From a virus (taxonomy: Duplodnaviria > Heunggongvirae > Uroviricota > Caudoviricetes), in the IMG/VR virus record IMGVR_UViG_2541047432_000023: a DNA stretch of 6,924 nucleotides; one strand, given 5' to 3'. A program made the position numbers and the translations under genes. Positions 1 through 6,924 of this stretch are shown piece after piece (the first letter of the stretch is position 1; every line of letters starts with the position of its first letter). The notes beneath the pieces are model-generated. The model searched no databases. It was not told the DNA's origin and saw nothing but the letters and a program-made list of their open reading frames with translations.

Positions 1-204
1 ACAATGCCGCAGACCAGAGCGCCATCAGTCAGTACCAACATTATCCTGCTGGTGAAATCCATCATCACCATCACTAAAAGCAGGATCACAACAGCAAGCA
101 GACACAGTTTATAAAACAATGTTCAGGAAACGCATTCAGCATGCCTAAGGTTCTATTCCTACGAATAGCCAACTTGCAACTTAAAATATTATTTATGCAG
201 CCAA

Positions 205-963
205 TTAAATTCTGGTCCTTACAATATCAACCTGAAGATTCTTATCTTGTGCTGATTGATAAATGACAAACCTTTTACTACCTGCATTGAAAGAAGTAGA
301 CAAAACCAGACAATTATCATAACGAGCAAGAACATAATACCAACCATCATTATAATTAATCATTTCATATTCTTTCTTAAACTGTGGTTTGTAATATCCT
401 GTCAGAAATGAAAAAAGCCAGAAATATGCCACAAAAGCAATCATCACAATCTCAAAAAAATGTTTTTTTATAAATGGCTTATCATAGAAGCATGATACCG
501 ATAAAAATCGCCCATAAGATCTTATCGAAATTGTGACCGCCAGCGCAATCGCTGCTGACAGTAGCAAAAGAGGTACCTGAATCTTCTGTCTCAATATAGA
601 AAACTCAATAATTGCCGGCACAAACAATAATTCCACAGCAAAATAAAGGCGAAATACATTTAGCTCTTGCATAGAATGTTTTCTTTTCACTGCGAAAAAG
701 AATACAACACCAATACCCCAACCGATAAGAAATATAGCAATGACGATAACTGCAAAAAATAAACTTCTGGCAACATCATCAACACCTGCACCTACAATCC
801 ACCATGGGAAGCCGTAGTAAAAAGAAGTACCCCATCCATAGAAATAAGCACTCCCCCATCCAAGGCATCCCATGTAGGCAATAAAAAGTGAAGAACTCCT
901 GAGCAGCGCACCATCCTTCATAACCACCCCAATACAAGATGATAACATTGGCTTACAACTCAT
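205..963 (-). CDS. uncharacterised polytopic inner-membrane protein (about 5 predicted TM helices plus ~60 aa hydrophilic C-terminal tail); cargo gene downstream of Q
   Basis: ORF track, 252 aa. By eye there are about five hydrophobic helices (e.g. LFFAVIVIAIFLIGWGIGVVFFFAV, VPLLLLSAAIALAVTISI, FFEIVMIAFVAYFWLFSFLTGYY) followed by a polar tail (KPQFKKEYEMINYNDGWYYVLARYDNCLVLSTSFNAGSKRFVIYQSAQ...). The gene is visibly AT-rich compared with the flanking phage genes. I recognise no family. The start is uncertain: in-frame ATGs at 963, 921 and 873, none with a clean Shine-Dalgarno. Stop TAA at 205-207. Confidence 0.55.
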   Translation of the reverse strand: MSCKPMLSSCIGVVMKDGALLRSSSLFIAYMGCLGWGSAYFYGWGTSFYYGFPWWIVGAGVDDVARSLFFAVIVIAIFLIGWGIGVVFFFAVKRKHSMQELNVFRLYFAVELLFVPAIIEFSILRQKIQVPLLLLSAAIALAVTISIRSYGRFLSVSCFYDKPFIKKHFFEIVMIAFVAYFWLFSFLTGYYKPQFKKEYEMINYNDGWYYVLARYDNCLVLSTSFNAGSKRFVIYQSAQDKNLQVDIVRTRI

Positions 964-1057
964 AACAAAAGCAATTCAATGCCGTCAAGAGGTTACAGGC
1001 TAAAAAAACTCTATTACATAGCAGCCAGCATGTTTACCGTACAAGTACAACTCAGGG

Positions 1058-1089
1058 CATAAAAAAACCCACTCGGCAGCGGGTTTATA
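1058..1089 (-). terminator. candidate intrinsic terminator about 45 bp downstream of the Q-like gene (tR'-like)
   Basis: The minus-strand RNA reads AAACCCGC-UGCCGA-GUGGGUUU followed by a U-run (plus-strand A7 at 1061-1067). The stem is GC-rich with one G-U wobble. On the plus strand the same position is an A-C mismatch, so the structure favours minus-strand transcription. Confidence 0.5.
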
Positions 1090-1119
1090 CATTTTTTACA
1101 ACATACCAAATTTGCATGA

Positions 1120-1148
1120 AGTATATGGCTTTTAATCCAGTTTTGCAA
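1120..1148 (-). promoter_or_regulatory. candidate sigma70 promoter overlapping the 3' end of the Q-like gene (PR'-like late promoter)
   Basis: Minus strand: -35 TTGCAA (1143-1148), 17-nt spacer, -10 TATACT (1120-1125). With the terminator at 1058-1089 this predicts a short (about 50 nt) terminated leader, analogous in layout to lambda PR'/6S RNA/tR'. Hexamers identified by eye only. Confidence 0.3.
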
Positions 1149-1821
1149 TATTTTGCTGTAAAAATGCTGCCTTTTGTTTTGAACGTGTTCTCGTCACAAG
1201 CAATAAAGCATCACTATCAAGCTGTAGAAAAATGTGCTTCATTGCAACCCAGCGTTCAGTAAATGTCTCGGACCAGTTTTTTGTTGTCACTCCCACCAAT
1301 GATGCCAGTGTCTGGTATTCATAGGCCTCACGCCCTGCAAGTTCGCTCTTCACATCCTGTGCAGCCAGCCAGATTAACGTCTTCAGGCGATCCAGTGTCT
1401 TACCTGCAATTTTTCTGTTACTTAACAAATCTTTAAACTCGCTCCATGCCCATTGCGTTATGGTGACCTGATGCCCCCATCGAACGCTTTCGCTGTAACA
1501 CCAAAGCAACCATGCTTTCTGATGTTCATCGAGAGACAAAACCGCGCGGCGCCATGAAGAGGTTGAGAATTCAACCGGGCTGACCAAAGCAATGGATGAA
1601 CCTTTTGCGTACGACTGCTTACCGGAAGTCGGCGTATTATCCAGCGTAATCATCTTGCCAGTTACCACATCCAGAATGCGCGGCTTCTTTCGTTTGTATG
1701 TACCAGTATCAAATTGTGCATGCTCCAGCCAGGCTTCAAGCTGTCCTTTCGTTGCTCCGCTCAAATCAGCGGTAGCCACAATGAGTTGCTCGCGGACATA
1801 CTGTAAATATTGGGTATTCAT
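1132..1821 (-). CDS. putative late-gene antitermination protein (Q-like, non-lambda-Q type)
   Basis: ORF track, 229 aa. The ATG at 1821 overlaps the ylcG stop (ATGA). It sits directly after rusA-ylcG, where lambdoid phages carry Q, and a promoter-plus-terminator pair lies just downstream. The protein has a single Cys, so it cannot carry the Cys-rich zinc motif of lambda Q. Family assignment is by position and recall, not a search. Confidence 0.55.
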   Translation of the reverse strand: MNTQYLQYVREQLIVATADLSGATKGQLEAWLEHAQFDTGTYKRKKPRILDVVTGKMITLDNTPTSGKQSYAKGSSIALVSPVEFSTSSWRRAVLSLDEHQKAWLLWCYSESVRWGHQVTITQWAWSEFKDLLSNRKIAGKTLDRLKTLIWLAAQDVKSELAGREAYEYQTLASLVGVTTKNWSETFTERWVAMKHIFLQLDSDALLLVTRTRSKQKAAFLQQNIAKLD

Positions 1822-1958
1822 GCGGCAGCTCCTTTCAGTGTTTTGGCGTAATTCTTCAGTATCCGGTAATCGGTCAAAACAGAACCAGGAAAACGATATA
1901 AGCGCAGGCGCATCCAGCGGTGGCGAAGACGTTCTGCCATATAAGACTCAAACATCAT
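1818..1958 (-). CDS. ylcG: small YlcG-like phage protein (46 aa)
   Basis: Hand translation of the minus strand gives [46 protein letters not shown]. It is below the ORF-track size cutoff. Its start overlaps the rusA stop (ATGA) and its stop overlaps the Q-like start (ATGA). It resembles the DLP12 YlcG I recall from E. coli K-12. The N-terminal start could instead be the ATG at 1940. Confidence 0.6.
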
Positions 1959-2317
1959 TCATTCCCCAGTTCGGTGATGGTCAGCTCCAGCTTCCCACCT
2001 TTGGTAACGGGCATCTTCACAACACGGTAATCAACGACCTGAGCATCATCCAGCCAGAAACCTGCTTTGGTGAGTGCGTCAAAAGCGGCTTTTTGCAGAT
2101 TATCCAGGTCACGGCGACGGCGATCCGGCATGTGGCACTCAATACGGATTTTCACTGGCATAGCCAGGCCGATATCCAGCATGGAGCCTTTGATGATTCG
2201 GGCGACGTTATCACGGTATGCCTGCCCTTCTGCGCTGATGTGCGTGCGCCCGCGATTATGCCGGTAGTAGCGATTATTGCTCGGAGGCCAGGGTAATGTG
2301 ATGCTGTAGGTATTCAC
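1955..2317 (-). CDS. rusA: crossover junction endodeoxyribonuclease RusA (Holliday junction resolvase)
   Basis: ORF track, 120 aa ([24 protein letters not shown]...[41 protein letters not shown]...). This is near-identical to my recollection of E. coli RusA. GTG start at 2317 overlapping the ybcO stop (GTGA). Confidence 0.93.
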
Positions 2318-2604
2318 GCCTTAATAACCCCCTCTTTCAGCCAGATAACCTGTGTTCTCGCCATACCTTCCAGCGCGCATTCTTTTGCATATGCAGCATC
2401 GACAAAATGTGTGCGGCGGTCGATTTCGTCGTGGCAGGCAGAACATGCAATGGTGGCAATCAAGTCTGGCGGTTTGGTACCGGTGCCGCACAATCCAGTC
2501 AGCCGGATATGTGCCAGTACAGACGTTTCAGGGTTGCCATTACATACGCCAGGGATTCTTACTTGGCATTCCCGACTACGCGCTGCTTTTCTCAAATCAG
2601 CCAT
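2314..2604 (-). CDS. ybcO: YbcO-like Cys/His-rich protein (DUF1364-type putative nuclease)
   Basis: The ORF-track frame 2314..2643 is trimmed to the internal ATG at 2604 ([26 protein letters not shown]...CSACHDEID...), giving 96 aa. That ATG is preceded by GGAGGA and overlaps the ninE stop (ATGGCTGA). Multiple Cys/His residues suggest a metal site. Confidence 0.8.
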
Positions 2605-2767
2605 GATTCCTCCTTGCTGCCAGTCGCAACCATTTTTTATCAACCAGGCTGGCGGTATATCCGAGCAGTGTTGGTATTTCGGATGGCTTCAGCTCAGGTT
2701 TACGCTTACGACGATTTGGTACTTTGTAGATGTGTCCGTTCATGACACGAATAAGCGGTGTAGCCAT
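2597..2767 (-). CDS. ninE: NinE family protein (56 aa)
   Basis: Hand translation of the minus strand gives [56 protein letters not shown]. It is below the ORF-track cutoff. Its ATG overlaps the ybcN stop (TAATG) and its stop overlaps the ybcO start. Matches the NinE of DLP12/lambda nin region as I recall it. Confidence 0.75.
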   Translation of the reverse strand: MATPLIRVMNGHIYKVPNRRKRKPELKPSEIPTLLGYTASLVDKKWLRLAARRNHG

Positions 2768-3222
2768 TACGCCTCCTGCTTGTCACGCAGCAGCTGGAAC
2801 TCGCAGCTCTGTGGAATAGTCAGGTGGCAGCCAATATTCATCGCCCAGGCTTCAACCTTACACAGGAAGACATACATCTCTCCGGTACCAAGATCGGAGG
2901 TATGGCGTAACGACTGGATAGTAGTGATTTCGCCGGTTACGACATCAACCAGGTCCTTGGTTTCATAACCGAGGTATGTGTGTTTGAGAGCATCTTTTAC
3001 CCATGCTGAAGTAGCGAACGATTTCCCCCTGCTGATGAGGTATTCACTGATTTCGCTGTACCACATGTGGCTGAGTGCATTCTGGGAAAGACTGCGTCTC
3101 TCGCGCCACGGTTTAAGCACCATGCGAAAGCATTTGCCGTCTTCCAGATAAGTCTGGATCTGCTGACCGACAGCGGTGAAGTTACCGCGATGTAATTTGA
3201 TGCCATCTTGTGGGAGGTTCAC
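2767..3222 (-). CDS. ybcN: YbcN / NinB-like protein (DNA base-flipping protein family)
   Basis: ORF track, 151 aa ([15 protein letters not shown]...[16 protein letters not shown]...). Matches my recollection of E. coli DLP12 YbcN. GTG start at 3222 preceded by GGAGGTG. Confidence 0.85.
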
Positions 3223-3312
3223 GCTTCACCTCCGCAGAGATCAAACGCTGGATGCAAGACATCGCAGGTGCATTTCTGCATCTGTGACAAGGTAAGGAGT
3301 TCAGATTGTGGT

Positions 3313-3336
3313 CGCATTTAAGTCCCCTTAAATGCG
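3313..3336. repeat. perfect 10-bp inverted repeat (CGCATTTAAG-tccc-CTTAAATGCG), stem-loop B
   Basis: Read directly from the sequence. Arms at 3313-3322 and 3327-3336 are exact reverse complements with a 4-nt loop. No flanking U-tract. Confidence 0.6.
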
Positions 3337-3341
3337 CAGAA

Positions 3342-3370
3342 GTCACCGGAGTTGTTCAAGCTCCGGTGAC
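3342..3370 (-). terminator. perfect 10-bp GC-rich inverted repeat (GTCACCGGAG-9 nt-CTCCGGTGAC), stem-loop A; candidate tR2-like terminator or operator
   Basis: Arms at 3342-3351 and 3361-3370 are exact reverse complements. On the minus-strand RNA the hairpin is followed by UUCUGCGCAUUU, only a partial U-tract. It lies between the island and ybcN, where lambda carries tR2 (position from memory). Confidence 0.3.
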
Positions 3371-3412
3371 ATTATTATGGAAGGTTGATACTAAAAAATC
3401 AAAAATTGAATA

Positions 3413-3604
3413 TCATTGGCGATAGTCTAGCTTGTGATATCCACAAGCTACTTCAATGAAGCGACGAGTAACATTTTGTGTCATCCATGTTTTTTCAGTT
3501 AAGTGCCACACCCAGTTCAAAATTTGCTGATGTGTTGAACATGTACTAAGCGGGATGTTGTATTCATAAGCAACATTGATTCCGCAAAATCGGTGTCGTG
3601 TCAT
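3413..3604 (-). CDS. hypothetical small protein (63 aa), doubtful
   Basis: ORF track only (MTRHRFCGINVAYEYNIPLSTCSTHQQILNWVWHLTEK...). No convincing Shine-Dalgarno upstream of the ATG at 3604 and no recognised family. It occupies the gap between ybcK and the tandem hairpins. Confidence 0.2.
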   Translation of the reverse strand: MTRHRFCGINVAYEYNIPLSTCSTHQQILNWVWHLTEKTWMTQNVTRRFIEVACGYHKLDYRQ

Positions 3605-3723
3605 GACCGATTCACGTTGACCTGCGCCCTGTTGAGTGCCTGGGGATATTCTTGCTCGATAGTTAATATCATAGTAGTTACTTTACTTTCATACCATAGC
3701 ACGGTTGAAAAAGTGATTATTAC

Positions 3724-5250
3724 TCAAAAATAAACCTCACCATCAACCATATATTTGAGAGCACTTATCGCCTGCTGGGCGGATATTACTTTCATTAAAG
3801 GATAGTGTTTAAAAACAATGCCATTCATAAAATAGATATCACAGGTTTTATTATCCGTATTAATTATGATTTTTTCGAATATTTTATAGGCAAGTGTACG
3901 GCATAACTCTCGTCCATTTTTACTGGTTAAGTCAATAGCATAAAAATCACTGAATGAATTTACACCTTTACTCTTCAAAGTTTTCAATGATACCAAAGCT
4001 CTTCGTAATTCCTTATCTAATAGTCTTATTTTCTCTGCTATAGCGGTAACTTCAGGCGCGACAGACAATGCAACGATTAAATTATTAATTTTCATCTGAA
4101 GCTCAATAATTTTTAACTCTAAAGTTTCATTAGCATCTTTCTTGTTTTCAACTGGTTGAATTTTGCTACAATTAAAAAGCAATTCATTAATGATATTATA
4201 ATCAACCAAATCTCTCTTTATTGATGGCCTGTCACATCGATGTAATCTTCTCATCGGACAAACATAATAGCCATGCAAACTTCCAGATACCGCATGAACA
4301 ATCATGGTATTACCACAAGCCTCACACTTCATAACTGTTCGAAGTAGATTTATTAGCATAGGATTCTTGCTACTATTGCTAATACCAAAAGGTGCCAACC
4401 GAATTTCCTGTACAGCGTAAAACAAATCATCTGATATGACTCTGGGATAATAGCCAGCGATTTCACTTATCCCTTTCCCTCTTGCACGATATGAAGGTAC
4501 GCATATACCTATCAGAGCTTTATTCGCTAATAATTTTTCAATTACAGAAGGCCCCCATGCACTTTCTTTTCCTGAGAAATTCTTTACAGCATGATCATTT
4601 AAATACTTGGCTATTGCATTCAATGAGCGCCTTTCCATCCTGAGTTTAAAAATTAGCTCAATAGTTTTCACCCTGTCGGGGTCTGGAACAAAAGCCGTTC
4701 TTTTGTCATCTAAGGAGAGCCATCTCGGACAAGACGCCGTCATAATCGTACCTGATTCCAGTGCATCCTGCCGTTTTTTCTTCCATGATAATTTAACCCG
4801 ACTTGACTTTATCTCGCTTTCTTCATTTGCCCTTTGTGCTATAAGTATGGCTTTTATTAATGAATATGGCTCATTCAAAGAGTCAATATTATAGACTGTA
4901 TTGTCGCAAAGAGTTATAACATCAATACCGTGATTCAAAATCAATTTCAGACGTTCAATCGCTTCACCGACTTTTTCTCTTGAAAGTCTGTCCAGACTTT
5001 CAACTAACAATGTAGTTCCTGGCAATATATAACCATGCTCTATAGCATCTAAAAATTCCGAAAAAGCTCCTGATTGTGCATGCTTTCCTTTGAATGCACT
5101 TAATCCTAAATCTTCATATGTTATGGTATCAAGATAATAATCACTATTTACCTTTAACCATTCAGCAATAAGTCTTCTCTGTCGGTTTAATGAGTCGCCA
5201 GACATCTGACCTGGTGATGAAAATCGCATATATGCTATGGCTTTTTTCAT
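3724..5250 (-). CDS. ybcK: large serine recombinase (resolvase/invertase catalytic domain + recombinase domain + zinc ribbon), YbcK-like
   Basis: ORF track, 508 aa. N-terminal serine-recombinase motifs: AIAYMRFSSPGQ (catalytic Ser region), SLNRQ and ESLDRLSRE. Cys-rich zinc ribbon further on (CEACGNTMIVHAVSGSLHGYYVCPMRRLHRCD). Coiled-coil-like C-terminal region. SD AGGTG 6 nt before the ATG at 5250. Strongly AT-rich. Resembles DLP12 YbcK as I recall it. Confidence 0.85.
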   Translation of the reverse strand: MKKAIAYMRFSSPGQMSGDSLNRQRRLIAEWLKVNSDYYLDTITYEDLGLSAFKGKHAQSGAFSEFLDAIEHGYILPGTTLLVESLDRLSREKVGEAIERLKLILNHGIDVITLCDNTVYNIDSLNEPYSLIKAILIAQRANEESEIKSSRVKLSWKKKRQDALESGTIMTASCPRWLSLDDKRTAFVPDPDRVKTIELIFKLRMERRSLNAIAKYLNDHAVKNFSGKESAWGPSVIEKLLANKALIGICVPSYRARGKGISEIAGYYPRVISDDLFYAVQEIRLAPFGISNSSKNPMLINLLRTVMKCEACGNTMIVHAVSGSLHGYYVCPMRRLHRCDRPSIKRDLVDYNIINELLFNCSKIQPVENKKDANETLELKIIELQMKINNLIVALSVAPEVTAIAEKIRLLDKELRRALVSLKTLKSKGVNSFSDFYAIDLTSKNGRELCRTLAYKIFEKIIINTDNKTCDIYFMNGIVFKHYPLMKVISAQQAISALKYMVDGEVYF

Positions 5251-5494
5251 GGTGACACCTGCTAACTTATGCTTTTATAAACCTTAGTGGTGAGATATAA
5301 TTTTTGTTTAATTTTTATTTAAAAAGACAATTACGATCACACTATCTTGAATATACAACAATAATCGTATTGCAATTTGCTTACGCAATAATCTTGAAGG
5401 CACAAAAGAATACACAAAAACTAAAAACATTAACAAAAGCGGCCCATGTAAAGATATGAACCGCCATATTGCAGTCTTTTAAAAGAAATTATTT

Positions 5495-5827
5495 TTAATG
5501 TGGTGTGCTTCGTGACAATAAATTAATAACCAACACACCGGCACAAATCAACATCATGCCTATAACGGCTGGCAGGTCCAGCCGTTGGCCGAAAAACCCC
5601 CATGATAGTAAGCTAATCAGGACAATACCGACTCCTGACCAGATAGCATAAGCAATCCCTGTAGGAATATAAGCCAGCGTCTGAGCTAATAACCAGAATG
5701 ATGCACAATAACAAATAATTGTACCAACAGATGGCCATAACCGTGTAAAACCTTCTGAAAACTTCATTAAGGTTGTACCAATGACCTCTGCAAGTATTGC
5801 ACCACCAAGATAAATATAAGGGTTCAT
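5495..5827 (-). CDS. emrE: small multidrug resistance (SMR) family efflux transporter EmrE
   Basis: The ORF-track frame 5495..5881 contains MNPYIYLGGAILAEVIGTTLMKFSEGFTRLWPSVGTIICYCASFWLLAQTLAYIPTGIAYAIWSGVGIVLISLLSWGFFGQRLDLPAVIGMMLICAGVLVINLLSRSTPH, 110 aa from the internal ATG at 5827. That ATG is preceded by AGGAAAG. Near-identical to my recollection of E. coli EmrE, which is known to lie in the DLP12 prophage. Confidence 0.93.
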   Translation of the reverse strand: MNPYIYLGGAILAEVIGTTLMKFSEGFTRLWPSVGTIICYCASFWLLAQTLAYIPTGIAYAIWSGVGIVLISLLSWGFFGQRLDLPAVIGMMLICAGVLVINLLSRSTPH

Positions 5828-5842
5828 AACATATTCTTTCCT

Positions 5843-5877
5843 GTTCAAACTGGAGAGAATTGTACTACAGTTTGAAC
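5843..5877. promoter_or_regulatory. perfect 10-bp inverted repeat (GTTCAAACTG-15 nt-CAGTTTGAAC) just upstream of emrE; candidate operator or 5'-UTR structure
   Basis: Read directly from the sequence. Arms at 5843-5852 and 5868-5877 are exact reverse complements. It lies in the 67-bp gap between the ren stop and the emrE start. Confidence 0.4.
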
Positions 5878-5894
5878 TCAACTCACCTGTTTCA

Positions 5895-6197
5895 TCATTG
5901 TGTACCCATTGATGTTCTTTTATATACCCTCAATACCCGTTTCATCGCGGCACTCTGGCGACACTCCTTAAAAATCAGATTCGTGCTCACCTTTCCTTCC
6001 CGTTCTTCTCTGGTAGCGAACCGGTAATACACCGTTCGCCAGACCTTACCATCAACGACCAGGATTCCTGCCCGCGCCATTTTAGCCGCAGCCTGATTTA
6101 TGCTGGTTACGGTTGCACCTGTTACCGCGGCAACGTCCTGTGCACAGAAGCTCTTATGCGTCCCCAGGTAATGAATAATTGCCTCTTTGCCCGTCAT
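5895..6197 (-). CDS. ren: Ren protein (lambda Ren homologue, relief from Rex exclusion)
   Basis: ORF track, 100 aa (MTGKEAIIHYLGTHKSFCAQDVAAVTGATVTSINQAAAKMARAGILVVDGKVWRTVYYRFATREEREGK...). Closely matches lambda Ren as I recall it, except the last ~10 residues. The ATG at 6197 overlaps the P stop (ATGA). Confidence 0.85.
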   Translation of the reverse strand: MTGKEAIIHYLGTHKSFCAQDVAAVTGATVTSINQAAAKMARAGILVVDGKVWRTVYYRFATREEREGKVSTNLIFKECRQSAAMKRVLRVYKRTSMGTQ

Positions 6198-6895
6198 ACA
6201 CTTGCTCCTTTCAGTCCGAACTTAGCTTTAATTTCTGCGATCTTCGCCAGAGCCTGTGCACGATTTAGAGGTCTACCGCCCATAACAGGAAGTTGTTTTA
6301 CTGGTTCAGGTATCGTCTCACCACGGTTAATTCGCGCTGTCATACAGGTCAGTTCATCGGCAGCCTTGCGCCGTAATTCCGCGTCAGTCAGCGCATTGGC
6401 CCGCATGTTCTGGTACAAGTTGGTAACCAACCAGTAATGCGCGTTCGATTTCCACGGATAAGACTCTGCATCCGGATACAGGCCACGCTTCCTGCAATAC
6501 TCGTAAACCATATCAACCAGCTCGCTGACGTTTGGCAGTCCGGCGATAACGGATGCTTCTTCCCGGCACCATGCAACAAACTGCCCGGGTGATGGAAGAA
6601 ATGGTCGATTCTGCCGACGGGCTACGCGCATTCCTGCGTTAACCTGTTCCATCGAGGTGATCCCGTTTTCCCGGAAAGCCAGAACCCACTGGCGGCGGAT
6701 TTCGTTCAGTTCGTTCTGGTCACGGTTAGCCAGACTCGCCGGGAAAGTTGCCAGTAACTGGCTGAACACACCGTTGATGATCTGCGCTACCTGCTGTACC
6801 TGCGGCTTTTCGTCGTACTGTTCCGGCATGTTGTTGGCGATCCGACGCATCTGCTCACGGTCAAAGTTAACCATCTGTGCGGCGATGTTTTTCAT
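6194..6895 (-). CDS. P: replication protein P (lambda P, DnaB helicase loader)
   Basis: ORF track, 233 aa (MKNIAAQMVNFDREQMRRIANNMPEQYDEKPQVQQVAQIINGVFSQLLATFPASLANRDQNELNEIRRQWVLAFRENGIT...). Near-identical to lambda P as I recall it, and the same length. Confidence 0.95.
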   Translation of the reverse strand: MKNIAAQMVNFDREQMRRIANNMPEQYDEKPQVQQVAQIINGVFSQLLATFPASLANRDQNELNEIRRQWVLAFRENGITSMEQVNAGMRVARRQNRPFLPSPGQFVAWCREEASVIAGLPNVSELVDMVYEYCRKRGLYPDAESYPWKSNAHYWLVTNLYQNMRANALTDAELRRKAADELTCMTARINRGETIPEPVKQLPVMGGRPLNRAQALAKIAEIKAKFGLKGASV

Positions 6896-6924
6896 AAATC
6901 CACCCCGTAAATCCAGTCAGTGTT
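6892..6924 (-). CDS. O: replication initiator protein O, C-terminal fragment (continues beyond window)
   Basis: The minus-strand frame is open to the window edge and translates ...NTDWIYGVDL-stop. Its TGA overlaps the P start (ATGA). The position upstream of P matches lambdoid O-P organisation. Only about 10 codons are visible. Confidence 0.5.
   Translation of the reverse strand, partial: NTDWIYGVDL

Follow-up and report, generated by a model that had tools for sequence, protein, structure and literature searches.

In lambdoid prophages, the interval behind the Q antiterminator gene can hold optional cargo, and the same slot holds stx in Shiga toxin-encoding (Stx) phages. We analyzed a gene in such a slot. 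It lies in a 6,924-nucleotide stretch of DNA from a virus of the Caudoviricetes (IMG/VR record IMGVR_UViG_2541047432_000023), hereafter called the window, and appears in the ORF list of the window as a minus-strand open reading frame (ORF) of 252 codons at 205..963. A preliminary description had placed this ORF behind a Q-like gene with its promoter/terminator pair, and this arrangement is indeed present. It had also called the product an undescribed membrane protein of no recognisable family, which turned out not to be the case. By tblastn, the protein is 100% identical to gp68 of Escherichia phage 434, a "putative membrane protein", and the coding sequence (CDS) of 717 bp occurs at 100% identity in EDL933, where RefSeq gives WP_001302581 at both prophage copies; these two copies follow two different Q types. 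Furthermore, the protein falls into PHROG 1521 and Pfam PF27470, and its homologs include TfpB of Moraxella and a Salmonella protein that is presumably STM1630. Thus, the sequence and its family are already known, being annotated in phage 434 and covered by Pfam and PHROG families. We tentatively read the gene as a lysogenic-conversion cassette (a "moron") whose product would be an envelope factor of use to the bacterium in animal hosts.

Experimental information within the family was found for the Salmonella homolog only. This homolog (46% identity, 238 aa) is encoded between sseJ and frmRA, which is the position of STM1630; the gene on one side encodes a protein with Sif and Lipase_GDSL domains (SseJ), and frmR/frmA-type genes lie on the other. 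RefSeq names a truncated E. coli remnant of the gene "STM1630 family protein". From the synteny and from the naming of this fragment by NCBI, we infer that the Salmonella homolog is STM1630. The NCBIfam hidden Markov models gave no match for the window protein; therefore, the family name was probably assigned by a rule of a different kind. STM1630 shows positive co-regulation with Salmonella pathogenicity island 2 (SPI-2) (PMC2639726), and its expression during macrophage infection was lower in strain D23580 than in strain 4/74 (bioRxiv 10.1101/450098). A figure legend in a further report describes two single-nucleotide polymorphisms (SNPs) that disrupt the −10 box of the STM1630 promoter in D23580 compared with 4/74, and calls the gene inactivated in D23580 (PMC6785131). 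In a high-throughput screen, the STM1630 deletion was hypermotile (PMC4219756).

The second named relative is found in Moraxella. A scan of species-representative genomes identified family members in Moraxella bovis, M. lacunata, M. equi, and M. oblonga, and profile matches to near-relatives reached E 1e-19. The M. bovis homolog showed 27% identity over residues 9–236 (tblastn E 2e-19). There, tfpB is intact (261 aa) and lies inside the invertible pilin segment, with inverted pilin 3′ segments on both flanks, downstream of and co-oriented with one of them. The M. lacunata copy, truncated at 195 aa, is located between an IS110/Piv-type recombinase gene and pilin genes, and strain NCTC10359 carries two such loci. 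The 1990 papers by Fulks, Marrs and colleagues are said to describe a classical tfpB arrangement like that seen here, and a small duplication truncating tfpB in M. lacunata was reportedly noted in the old literature. To our knowledge, the Moraxella tfpB ORF has been an orphan since about 1990. Mangrovibacter phragmitis provided a second case of a family member beside a site-specific DNA invertase gene: on LYRP01000002.1, a far-branch member lies between genes for an EcsC-family protein and a Hin-type (Resolvase+HTH_7) invertase, with an integrase fragment nearby.

At the level of families, the window protein matched the whole PHROG 1521 profile (E 2.1e-154, profile positions 1–222 of 222; PHROG category "unknown function"), and three further PHROGs (phrog_14371, phrog_17164, and phrog_3985) represent parts of this gene. 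In a collection of 5.8 billion proteins, the identical protein and all 103 first-round homologs carry the precomputed Pfam tag PF27470.1 "TfpB", a name taken from the ORF in the Moraxella pilin inversion region; membership in PF27470 is taken from these tags. Pfam and NCBIfam scans gave zero matches for the ORF, and the empty Pfam scan is explained by the age of the copy scanned here, which predates the PF27470 model. A PADLOC scan of the ORF hit 0 families. When 27 members of a broad alignment were scanned with Pfam at E up to 5, only scattered single-member noise was obtained, with DUF2070 in 4 of the 27 members at E 1.7 or worse, and a profile search of PDB sequences gave complex I ND3 as its best match at E 4.5. 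Literature searches on PF27470, tfpB with tfpQ, and WP_001302581 found none, and those on tfpB, Moraxella, and piv returned nothing relevant. The TfpB of Acinetobacter is, we assume, an unrelated PilB-like ATPase.

The preliminary description had also failed to place the protein among holins or in the RexB/Sie/Imm, Gtr, or CPBP families. Here it agreed with our results, as the Pfam, PADLOC, and motif checks were all blank. The protein does not look like a holin. Holins have about 60–150 aa with 1–4 transmembrane (TM) helices and are encoded beside the endolysin, whereas this protein has 238 aa with five predicted TM helices and a β-domain, and no Pfam holin model matched; separate class II holin genes adjoin the endolysin gene further downstream in phage 434 and EDL933. 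Nor does it look like a CPBP/Abi protease, as neither an EExxxR or H...(D/N) motif nor a Pfam match was found. Such proteases also carry FxxxH/HxxxB motifs; here, a lone FIKKH in a predicted cytoplasmic loop is unconserved.

Next, we analyzed the gene model. The full-length homologs are all 236–238 aa and align from Met15 of the 252-codon ORF, and a Shine-Dalgarno-like element precedes the ATG at 921; therefore, Met15 is almost certainly the true start, which would give a CDS of 717 bp and 238 aa. The position of this element is also G-rich in other alleles. The extension over 922..963 is present in the closest E. coli copies only, and no other homolog reaches there. As for the two upstream candidates, the ATG at 963 sits within a conserved −10-like element, and the ATG at 948, from which the RefSeq and phage 434 annotations begin (247 aa), is unconserved in other alleles. 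The ORF has a GC content of 36.4% (31% at third codon positions), compared with 46–54% for Q, ylcG, rusA, ybcO, ybcN, ren, and P. This agrees with the earlier remark that it is AT-richer than the phage backbone.

The gene is subject to strong purifying selection. Nei-Gojobori ratios of nonsynonymous to synonymous substitutions (dN/dS) were 0.05–0.08 in six pairs (dS 0.24–0.77) from Escherichia and Salmonella lineages; these values, together with more than 100 homolog clusters in the first-round search, indicate a real gene rather than a chance ORF. Many database copies are truncated or frameshifted. The PHROG fragments break by the A7 and T7 tracts at codons 151–156, with phrog_14371 ending at residue 157 and phrog_3985 starting at residue 160. 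This site could be a frameshift hotspot, a place of slipped-strand switching, or a source of sequencing error.

The cargo behavior of the gene was then compared across related prophages. The best whole-window matches by megablast were O157:H7 prophages, with 98.9% identity over 1099–6924 and divergent sequence beyond. Since homology ends at 1099, the terminator region and the downstream cargo form a module distinct from the Q gene. This junction falls between the late promoter and its terminator. In O157:H7 strain F7349, the holin gene follows Q after ~320 bp and the slot is empty (locus interval 5407–6723). In a different prophage, a 56%-identical allele lies directly downstream of another PF06323 Q gene. 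In phage 434B, a viable clear-plaque phage, the Q-to-lysis region is replaced by DLP12 DNA (PMC9119081). The segment annotated in the phage 434 record as unshared with 434B spans gp68; as 434B is viable without this segment, the gene is dispensable for lytic growth. Thus, the idea of a Q-proximal cargo slot was upheld, and the suggested comparison of the Q-to-holin interval among related prophages revealed presence/absence polymorphism. The late-region neighbors of the gene in phage 434 and EDL933 are likewise cargo genes, encoding LpxR, a SASA esterase, and an Iss/Bor-like lipoprotein, and lpxR also lies just upstream of ylcG-Q and the cargo gene in both.

The gene travels on its own, as a unit of one gene, between prophages, virulence plasmids, and chromosomal islets in animal-associated Gammaproteobacteria and Neisseriaceae. 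Among 5,426 complete E. coli genomes, 767 have a place covering at least 80% of the 717-bp CDS, a count of sequence coverage and not of intact ORFs, and 679 records match the CDS at 99% identity or more. Diverged E. coli alleles have 100, 68, 59, 57, and 39% identity, with up to four places per genome. In addition, 181 IMG/VR viral contigs encode a relative. An exhaustive profile search of 1.84 billion representatives yielded only 72 clusters; the members with a name belong to Enterobacterales, Pasteurellaceae, Neisseriaceae, or Moraxella and are all "hypothetical", and the source names of 20 distant clusters each read "hypothetical protein". A 3-kb contig labeled "MAG: Veillonella sp." (JAIITD010000172.1) encodes a 100% identical protein together with DUF3927 and gp70-like E. 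coli phage genes, and is almost certainly a binning contaminant.

Two of these contexts are virulence plasmids. In enterotoxigenic E. coli (ETEC), an allele with 59% identity lies in an enterotoxin islet, between eltAB and EAST1/STb. On pUMNK88_Ent (NC_017640.1, 17903–18616), it is 867 bp from eltA and divergent from it, EAST1 and STb follow ~2.5–3 kb downstream, insertion sequence (IS) elements surround it, and the promoter-like block described below is retained. This heat-labile enterotoxin (LT) islet may carry a fragment of a prophage late region. In Shigella, 106 plasmids carry a copy with 56% identity; on pCP301 (AF386526.1, 140876–141592, SF_p0168), it lies in an IS-rich patch ~5.5 kb beyond spa40, and the record CP006737.1 already labels the Shigella plasmid copy "TfpB protein".

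A further allele lies beside iroB/iroC and Bor in the iro island. In Citrobacter rodentium, 178 bp separate the copy from a frameshifted lpxR; it lies on the frmA side, as in Salmonella, and an Enterobacter copy is again beside frmRA. Three genera (Salmonella, C. rodentium, and Enterobacter) thus have a member at the same chromosomal spot by frmR/frmA, while the other flank varies: sseJ in Salmonella, the frameshifted lpxR in C. rodentium. In Enterobacter and Klebsiella, a copy also occurs at a prophage end by umuDC-like genes. The Glaesserella copy adjoins cdt genes, and copies in Pasteurellaceae and Conchiformibius stand alone amid housekeeping genes. In Haemophilus ducreyi, Pasteurella sp., and Mannheimia glucosida, the homolog is next to, or two genes from, a gene for a flavin mononucleotide-dependent LldD-type dehydrogenase; this neighborhood may reflect conserved synteny or repeated insertion at a preferred site.

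The alleles also share sequence ahead of the gene. Five alleles, which encode proteins with only 56–59% identity to the window protein, keep a CTTGAC(G/T)...TTTGT(T/A)ATG block, and two of the five, those of the ETEC plasmid and the iro island, have no Q gene ahead. Upstream of the block, the sequence is unrelated between contexts, and homology ends just above it. Given this distribution, the window segment 922–988 would comprise the leader and promoter of the cassette itself. An alternative promoter-like site at 939..968 is kept only in the closest alleles, and loosely in Salmonella.

For the protein, AlphaFold2 with a 27-sequence full-length alignment reaching 12–20% identity gave a mean predicted local distance difference test (pLDDT) score of 81.5 and a predicted template modeling (pTM) score of 0.73; with close homologs only, the model was unusable (pLDDT 62.8). 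The model contains helices at residues 6–36, 47–79, 89–111, 116–136, and 155–181, followed by a C-terminal five-stranded β-domain at 184–235. It agrees with the proposed architecture of about five TM helices plus a small C-terminal domain, which is predicted to be β-stranded. Hydropathy showed four strong TM segments and a Gly/aromatic-rich first helix. The family-wide counts of Lys plus Arg were 2.1 for the N-terminus, 3.4 for loop 2, and 4.1 for loop 4, compared with 0.8 for loop 1, 0.6 for loop 3, and 2.1 for the C-terminal flank. By the positive-inside rule, the N-terminus is therefore predicted to be cytoplasmic and the C-terminus periplasmic. The two most conserved elements, the YYGFPWW loop after TM1 and the C-terminal β-domain of ~55 residues, are accordingly placed on the periplasmic side in the predicted topology.

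Length (about 235–260 aa) and architecture are kept across the 27-member alignment, down to about 12–20% identity. TM1 bears a conserved ladder of small residues (S11, A15, G21, A25, G29/G31, S33, and G37), and the aromatics Y26, Y28, Y35, and Y195 are conserved, as are P39, P102, F167, and G175. No acidic or basic column was conserved across the broad alignment. Because only small and aromatic residues, and no charged ones, are conserved family-wide, the pattern probably reflects a packing or binding scaffold and not an enzyme.

These observations can be combined into the envelope-factor explanation. A self-contained cassette, consisting of the promoter-like block and the 238-codon gene, would have entered a DLP12/434-like prophage in the interval from the late terminator to the lysis genes. 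In the lysogen, transcription would start at the promoter of the cassette itself; after induction, Q-modified polymerase would also read through the terminator at 1065..1086 into the cargo gene. The product of the gene would be a non-enzymatic protein that binds a partner on the periplasmic side of the inner membrane. The benefit would go to the bacterial host as an envelope property in the animal, like that of the neighbors LpxR, NanS-p, and Bor, and not to phage replication. We favor this explanation because of the company of LpxR, NanS-p, Bor, and Iss, the location in toxin, effector, and invasion islets, the co-regulation with SPI-2, and the animal-associated taxa.

Several points weigh against it. 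Deletion of STM1630 left intramacrophage replication unreduced (PMC6785131), and hypermotility was not among the phenotypes confirmed by clean deletion in the abstract of PMC4534456. The co-regulation with SPI-2 and the clustering with virulence genes may reflect generic silencing by H-NS, and counter-silencing, of AT-rich acquired DNA. Some far-branch members come from genera without an obligate host association (Enterobacter, Leclercia, Klebsiella, and Mangrovibacter). Furthermore, the cassette promoter is an inference drawn from sequence, and the topology leans on the positive-inside rule, with three lysines directly after TM5.

Among the rivals, a superinfection-exclusion or immunity protein has a modest chance of being the right answer. 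Its periplasmic loop and β-domain would block phage DNA, pore-forming bacteriocins, or contact-dependent toxins. A small polytopic protein encoded by a single prophage-borne gene, with its own promoter-like block, without catalytic residues and dispensable for lytic growth, is what such a function would look like, and the several diverged alleles coexisting in E. coli resemble specificity-variant families. Orphan chromosomal copies are common, and copies are often truncated, which would also suit it. However, the periplasm-facing parts are the most conserved and not the most variable, and no exclusion or Abi family in PADLOC or Pfam matched. The gene also occupies stable chromosomal sites, by lldD-type genes in three Pasteurellaceae genera and by frmRA in Salmonella, Citrobacter, and Enterobacter, and lambdoid exclusion genes generally lie in the immunity region or near the tail genes, not in the late operon.

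The Moraxella loci suggest another function, that of an accessory factor which binds (pseudo)pilins and modulates the assembly of type IV pili or pseudopili; the enterobacterial targets would be the hemorrhagic coli pilus (HCP), type IVb pili, or the pseudopilins of the type II secretion system (T2SS). The position of tfpB within the invertible pilin segment of M. bovis, and between the Piv-type recombinase and pilin genes in M. lacunata, argues for it, and the small-xxx-small ladder on TM1 could serve in helix packing. Machinery for type IV pili or the T2SS is present in all taxa that carry the family (Moraxella, Neisseriaceae, Pasteurellaceae, and Enterobacterales). Nevertheless, we consider this function unlikely. 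At the inspected enterobacterial and Pasteurellaceae loci, no pilin gene adjoined the homolog, such a neighbor being found in Moraxella only, and the ORF list and Pfam scan of the window showed no pilin gene. No source calls any member a pilus protein, and no Pseudomonas or Dichelobacter accessory proteins were among the named clusters, most clusters being unnamed. Moreover, the M. bovis pilin reportedly assembles in Pseudomonas without tfpB, and the tfpB of M. lacunata is truncated.

A late phage function, either in lysis timing (antiholin-like, as P2 LysA) or as a helper of virion release, is very unlikely. The gene is the first ORF after pR′/tR′, lies upstream of the holin gene, and encodes a polytopic membrane protein, all of which would fit; yet the empty-slot relative and the viable 434B show that it is dispensable, most members are outside phages or far from lysis genes, and the promoter-like block is conserved outside phage contexts. 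Finally, a selfish or decaying hitchhiker without current function is hardly credible: many copies are truncated or frameshifted, homopolymer tracts lie at the common break point, and the Salmonella ST313 lineage has the −10 box SNPs and a gene described as inactivated, but the dN/dS of 0.05–0.08 holds across independent pairs, length and architecture are conserved to about 15–20% identity, and 767 of 5,426 E. coli genomes have the gene at the coverage given above.

We also considered a broader proposal, which is speculative and in our judgment rather improbable: the TfpB/STM1630 family may be an unrecognised class of single-protein, non-enzymatic inner-membrane "gatekeepers" of the envelope. 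The periplasmic aromatic loop and an SH3-like domain would bind a conserved envelope machine or an incoming macromolecule, and as an outcome phage DNA would be excluded, or the cell would become immune to membrane-targeting toxins or resistant to membrane-active agents of the host. Virulence-associated mobile elements in four bacterial families would have repeatedly recruited the gene for that trait; such recruits would include prophages of enterohemorrhagic E. coli (EHEC), ETEC LT plasmids, Shigella pINV, the Salmonella sseJ islet, and the Moraxella pilin switch. If this proposal were true, it would provide a function for the Moraxella tfpB ORF.

Irrespective of the function, the pattern itself is noteworthy: a strongly constrained single-gene cassette, with its promoter-like block conserved, recurs in the stx slot, in the LT/STb islet, on Shigella pINV, by sseJ, lpxR, iroBC, and cdt, and in the Moraxella pilin switch. 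The gene is already in databases, and specialists would find little in it to surprise them. It is a reasonable experimental target because it is associated with virulence elements, and the corrected start and predicted topology make experiments straightforward. Should a phenotype emerge, it would account in one step for hundreds of "hypothetical protein" entries in major enteric pathogens.

The remaining part of the window is a DLP12-like early-right region with P, ren, emrE, a ybcK-type serine recombinase gene, ybcN, ninE, ybcO, rusA, ylcG, and Q; the features around the cargo gene are listed in the table below. The late promoter is positioned as lambdoid late promoters are, and a terminator is annotated at the equivalent site in the phage 434 record. 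The DUF3927 gene that leaves the window on the other side of the cargo gene is annotated in phage 434 and EDL933. It was ruled out as an obligate partner, being present only beside the closest lambdoid copies of the cargo gene, and the name "TciB" led, in the literature, only to gene names of phage P1. A second AT-rich cargo block was observed at 3724–5881, between ren and ybcN as in DLP12-like prophages. It holds emrE (42% GC) and a gene for a 508-aa ybcK-type large serine recombinase (36% GC). The gap between ybcK and ybcN is only ~500 bp; ybcL and ybcM of K-12 DLP12 are presumably absent here.

Table. Features around the cargo gene, in window coordinates.
Feature	Position	Strand	Basis
5′ part of DUF3927 ("TciB"-like) small membrane protein gene, leaving the window	1..119	−	tblastn 100%, 39 residues
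CDS, TfpB/STM1630-family inner-membrane protein	205..921	−	238 aa from Met15; stop codon 207..205
A7 and T7 homopolymer tracts, codons 151–156	454..469	−	sequence
Codons 1–14 of the 252-codon ORF; most likely non-coding (5′ leader and promoter)	922..963	−	
Shine-Dalgarno-like GGGGTGG ahead of the Met15 ATG	924..930	−	read from sequence
Alternative promoter-like site TTGTTA-18-TATCAT with TG extension	939..968	−	consensus scan; weaker candidate
Candidate cassette promoter: TTGACG (988..983), 18 nt, TG-T-TATGAG (967..959)	959..988	−	conservation across alleles
Intrinsic terminator (tR′-type), 9-bp stem and T-run	1065..1086	−	sequence scan
Backbone/cargo junction, where homology to empty-slot O157:H7 prophages ends	1099		megablast
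Sigma-70-like late promoter (pR′-type) TTGCAA-17-TATACT, overlapping the Q end	1120..1148	−	consensus scan
Q antiterminator (phage 82/DLP12 QuuD type)	1132..1821	−	PF06323 E 2.4e-92; phrog_304 E 7e-109

Compared with described systems, phage 434 gp68 and EDL933 WP_001302581 are the closest. They occupy the same position as the window gene, in the order Q, gene, DUF3927, and differ from it in the annotated start alone (247 aa against 238 aa). In phage 434, a SASA/NanS-p esterase gene and the holin gene then follow DUF3927, and in EDL933 one copy sits behind another Q type than that of the window. STM1630 is similar in being an AT-rich single-gene islet with its own promoter; however, it is chromosomal, whereas the window gene is phage-borne. 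Moraxella TfpB shows near-full-length homology in a similar size class (261 aa), sharing the AY.YGWG...GYPWW N-terminal part, the last TM helix, and the C-terminal β-domain, but its gene lies within the invertible pilin segment beside piv, whereas the window gene lies behind a phage Q with no pilin gene near. Pseudomonas aeruginosa TfpX/Y/Z and Dichelobacter nodosus FimB are encoded directly downstream of a pilin gene and needed for efficient pilus assembly; the window gene differs from them in gene context.

Similarly, P22 SieA, T4 Imm, HK97 gp15, and lambda RexB are small polytopic inner-membrane proteins encoded by single prophage genes that are dispensable lytically. Unlike these, the window protein is larger (five TM helices plus the β-domain), is chromosomally encoded outside prophages as well, and has no sequence or profile similarity to them. 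The lambdoid late-region morons stxAB, nmpC, bor, lom, lpxR, and nanS-p encode products unrelated in sequence to the window protein, but they follow the same logic, being optional, compositionally foreign, and located in or near the Q-dependent late operon. The window gene resembles these morons in that it is dispensable, is present or absent on collinear backbones, and has a deviant GC content.

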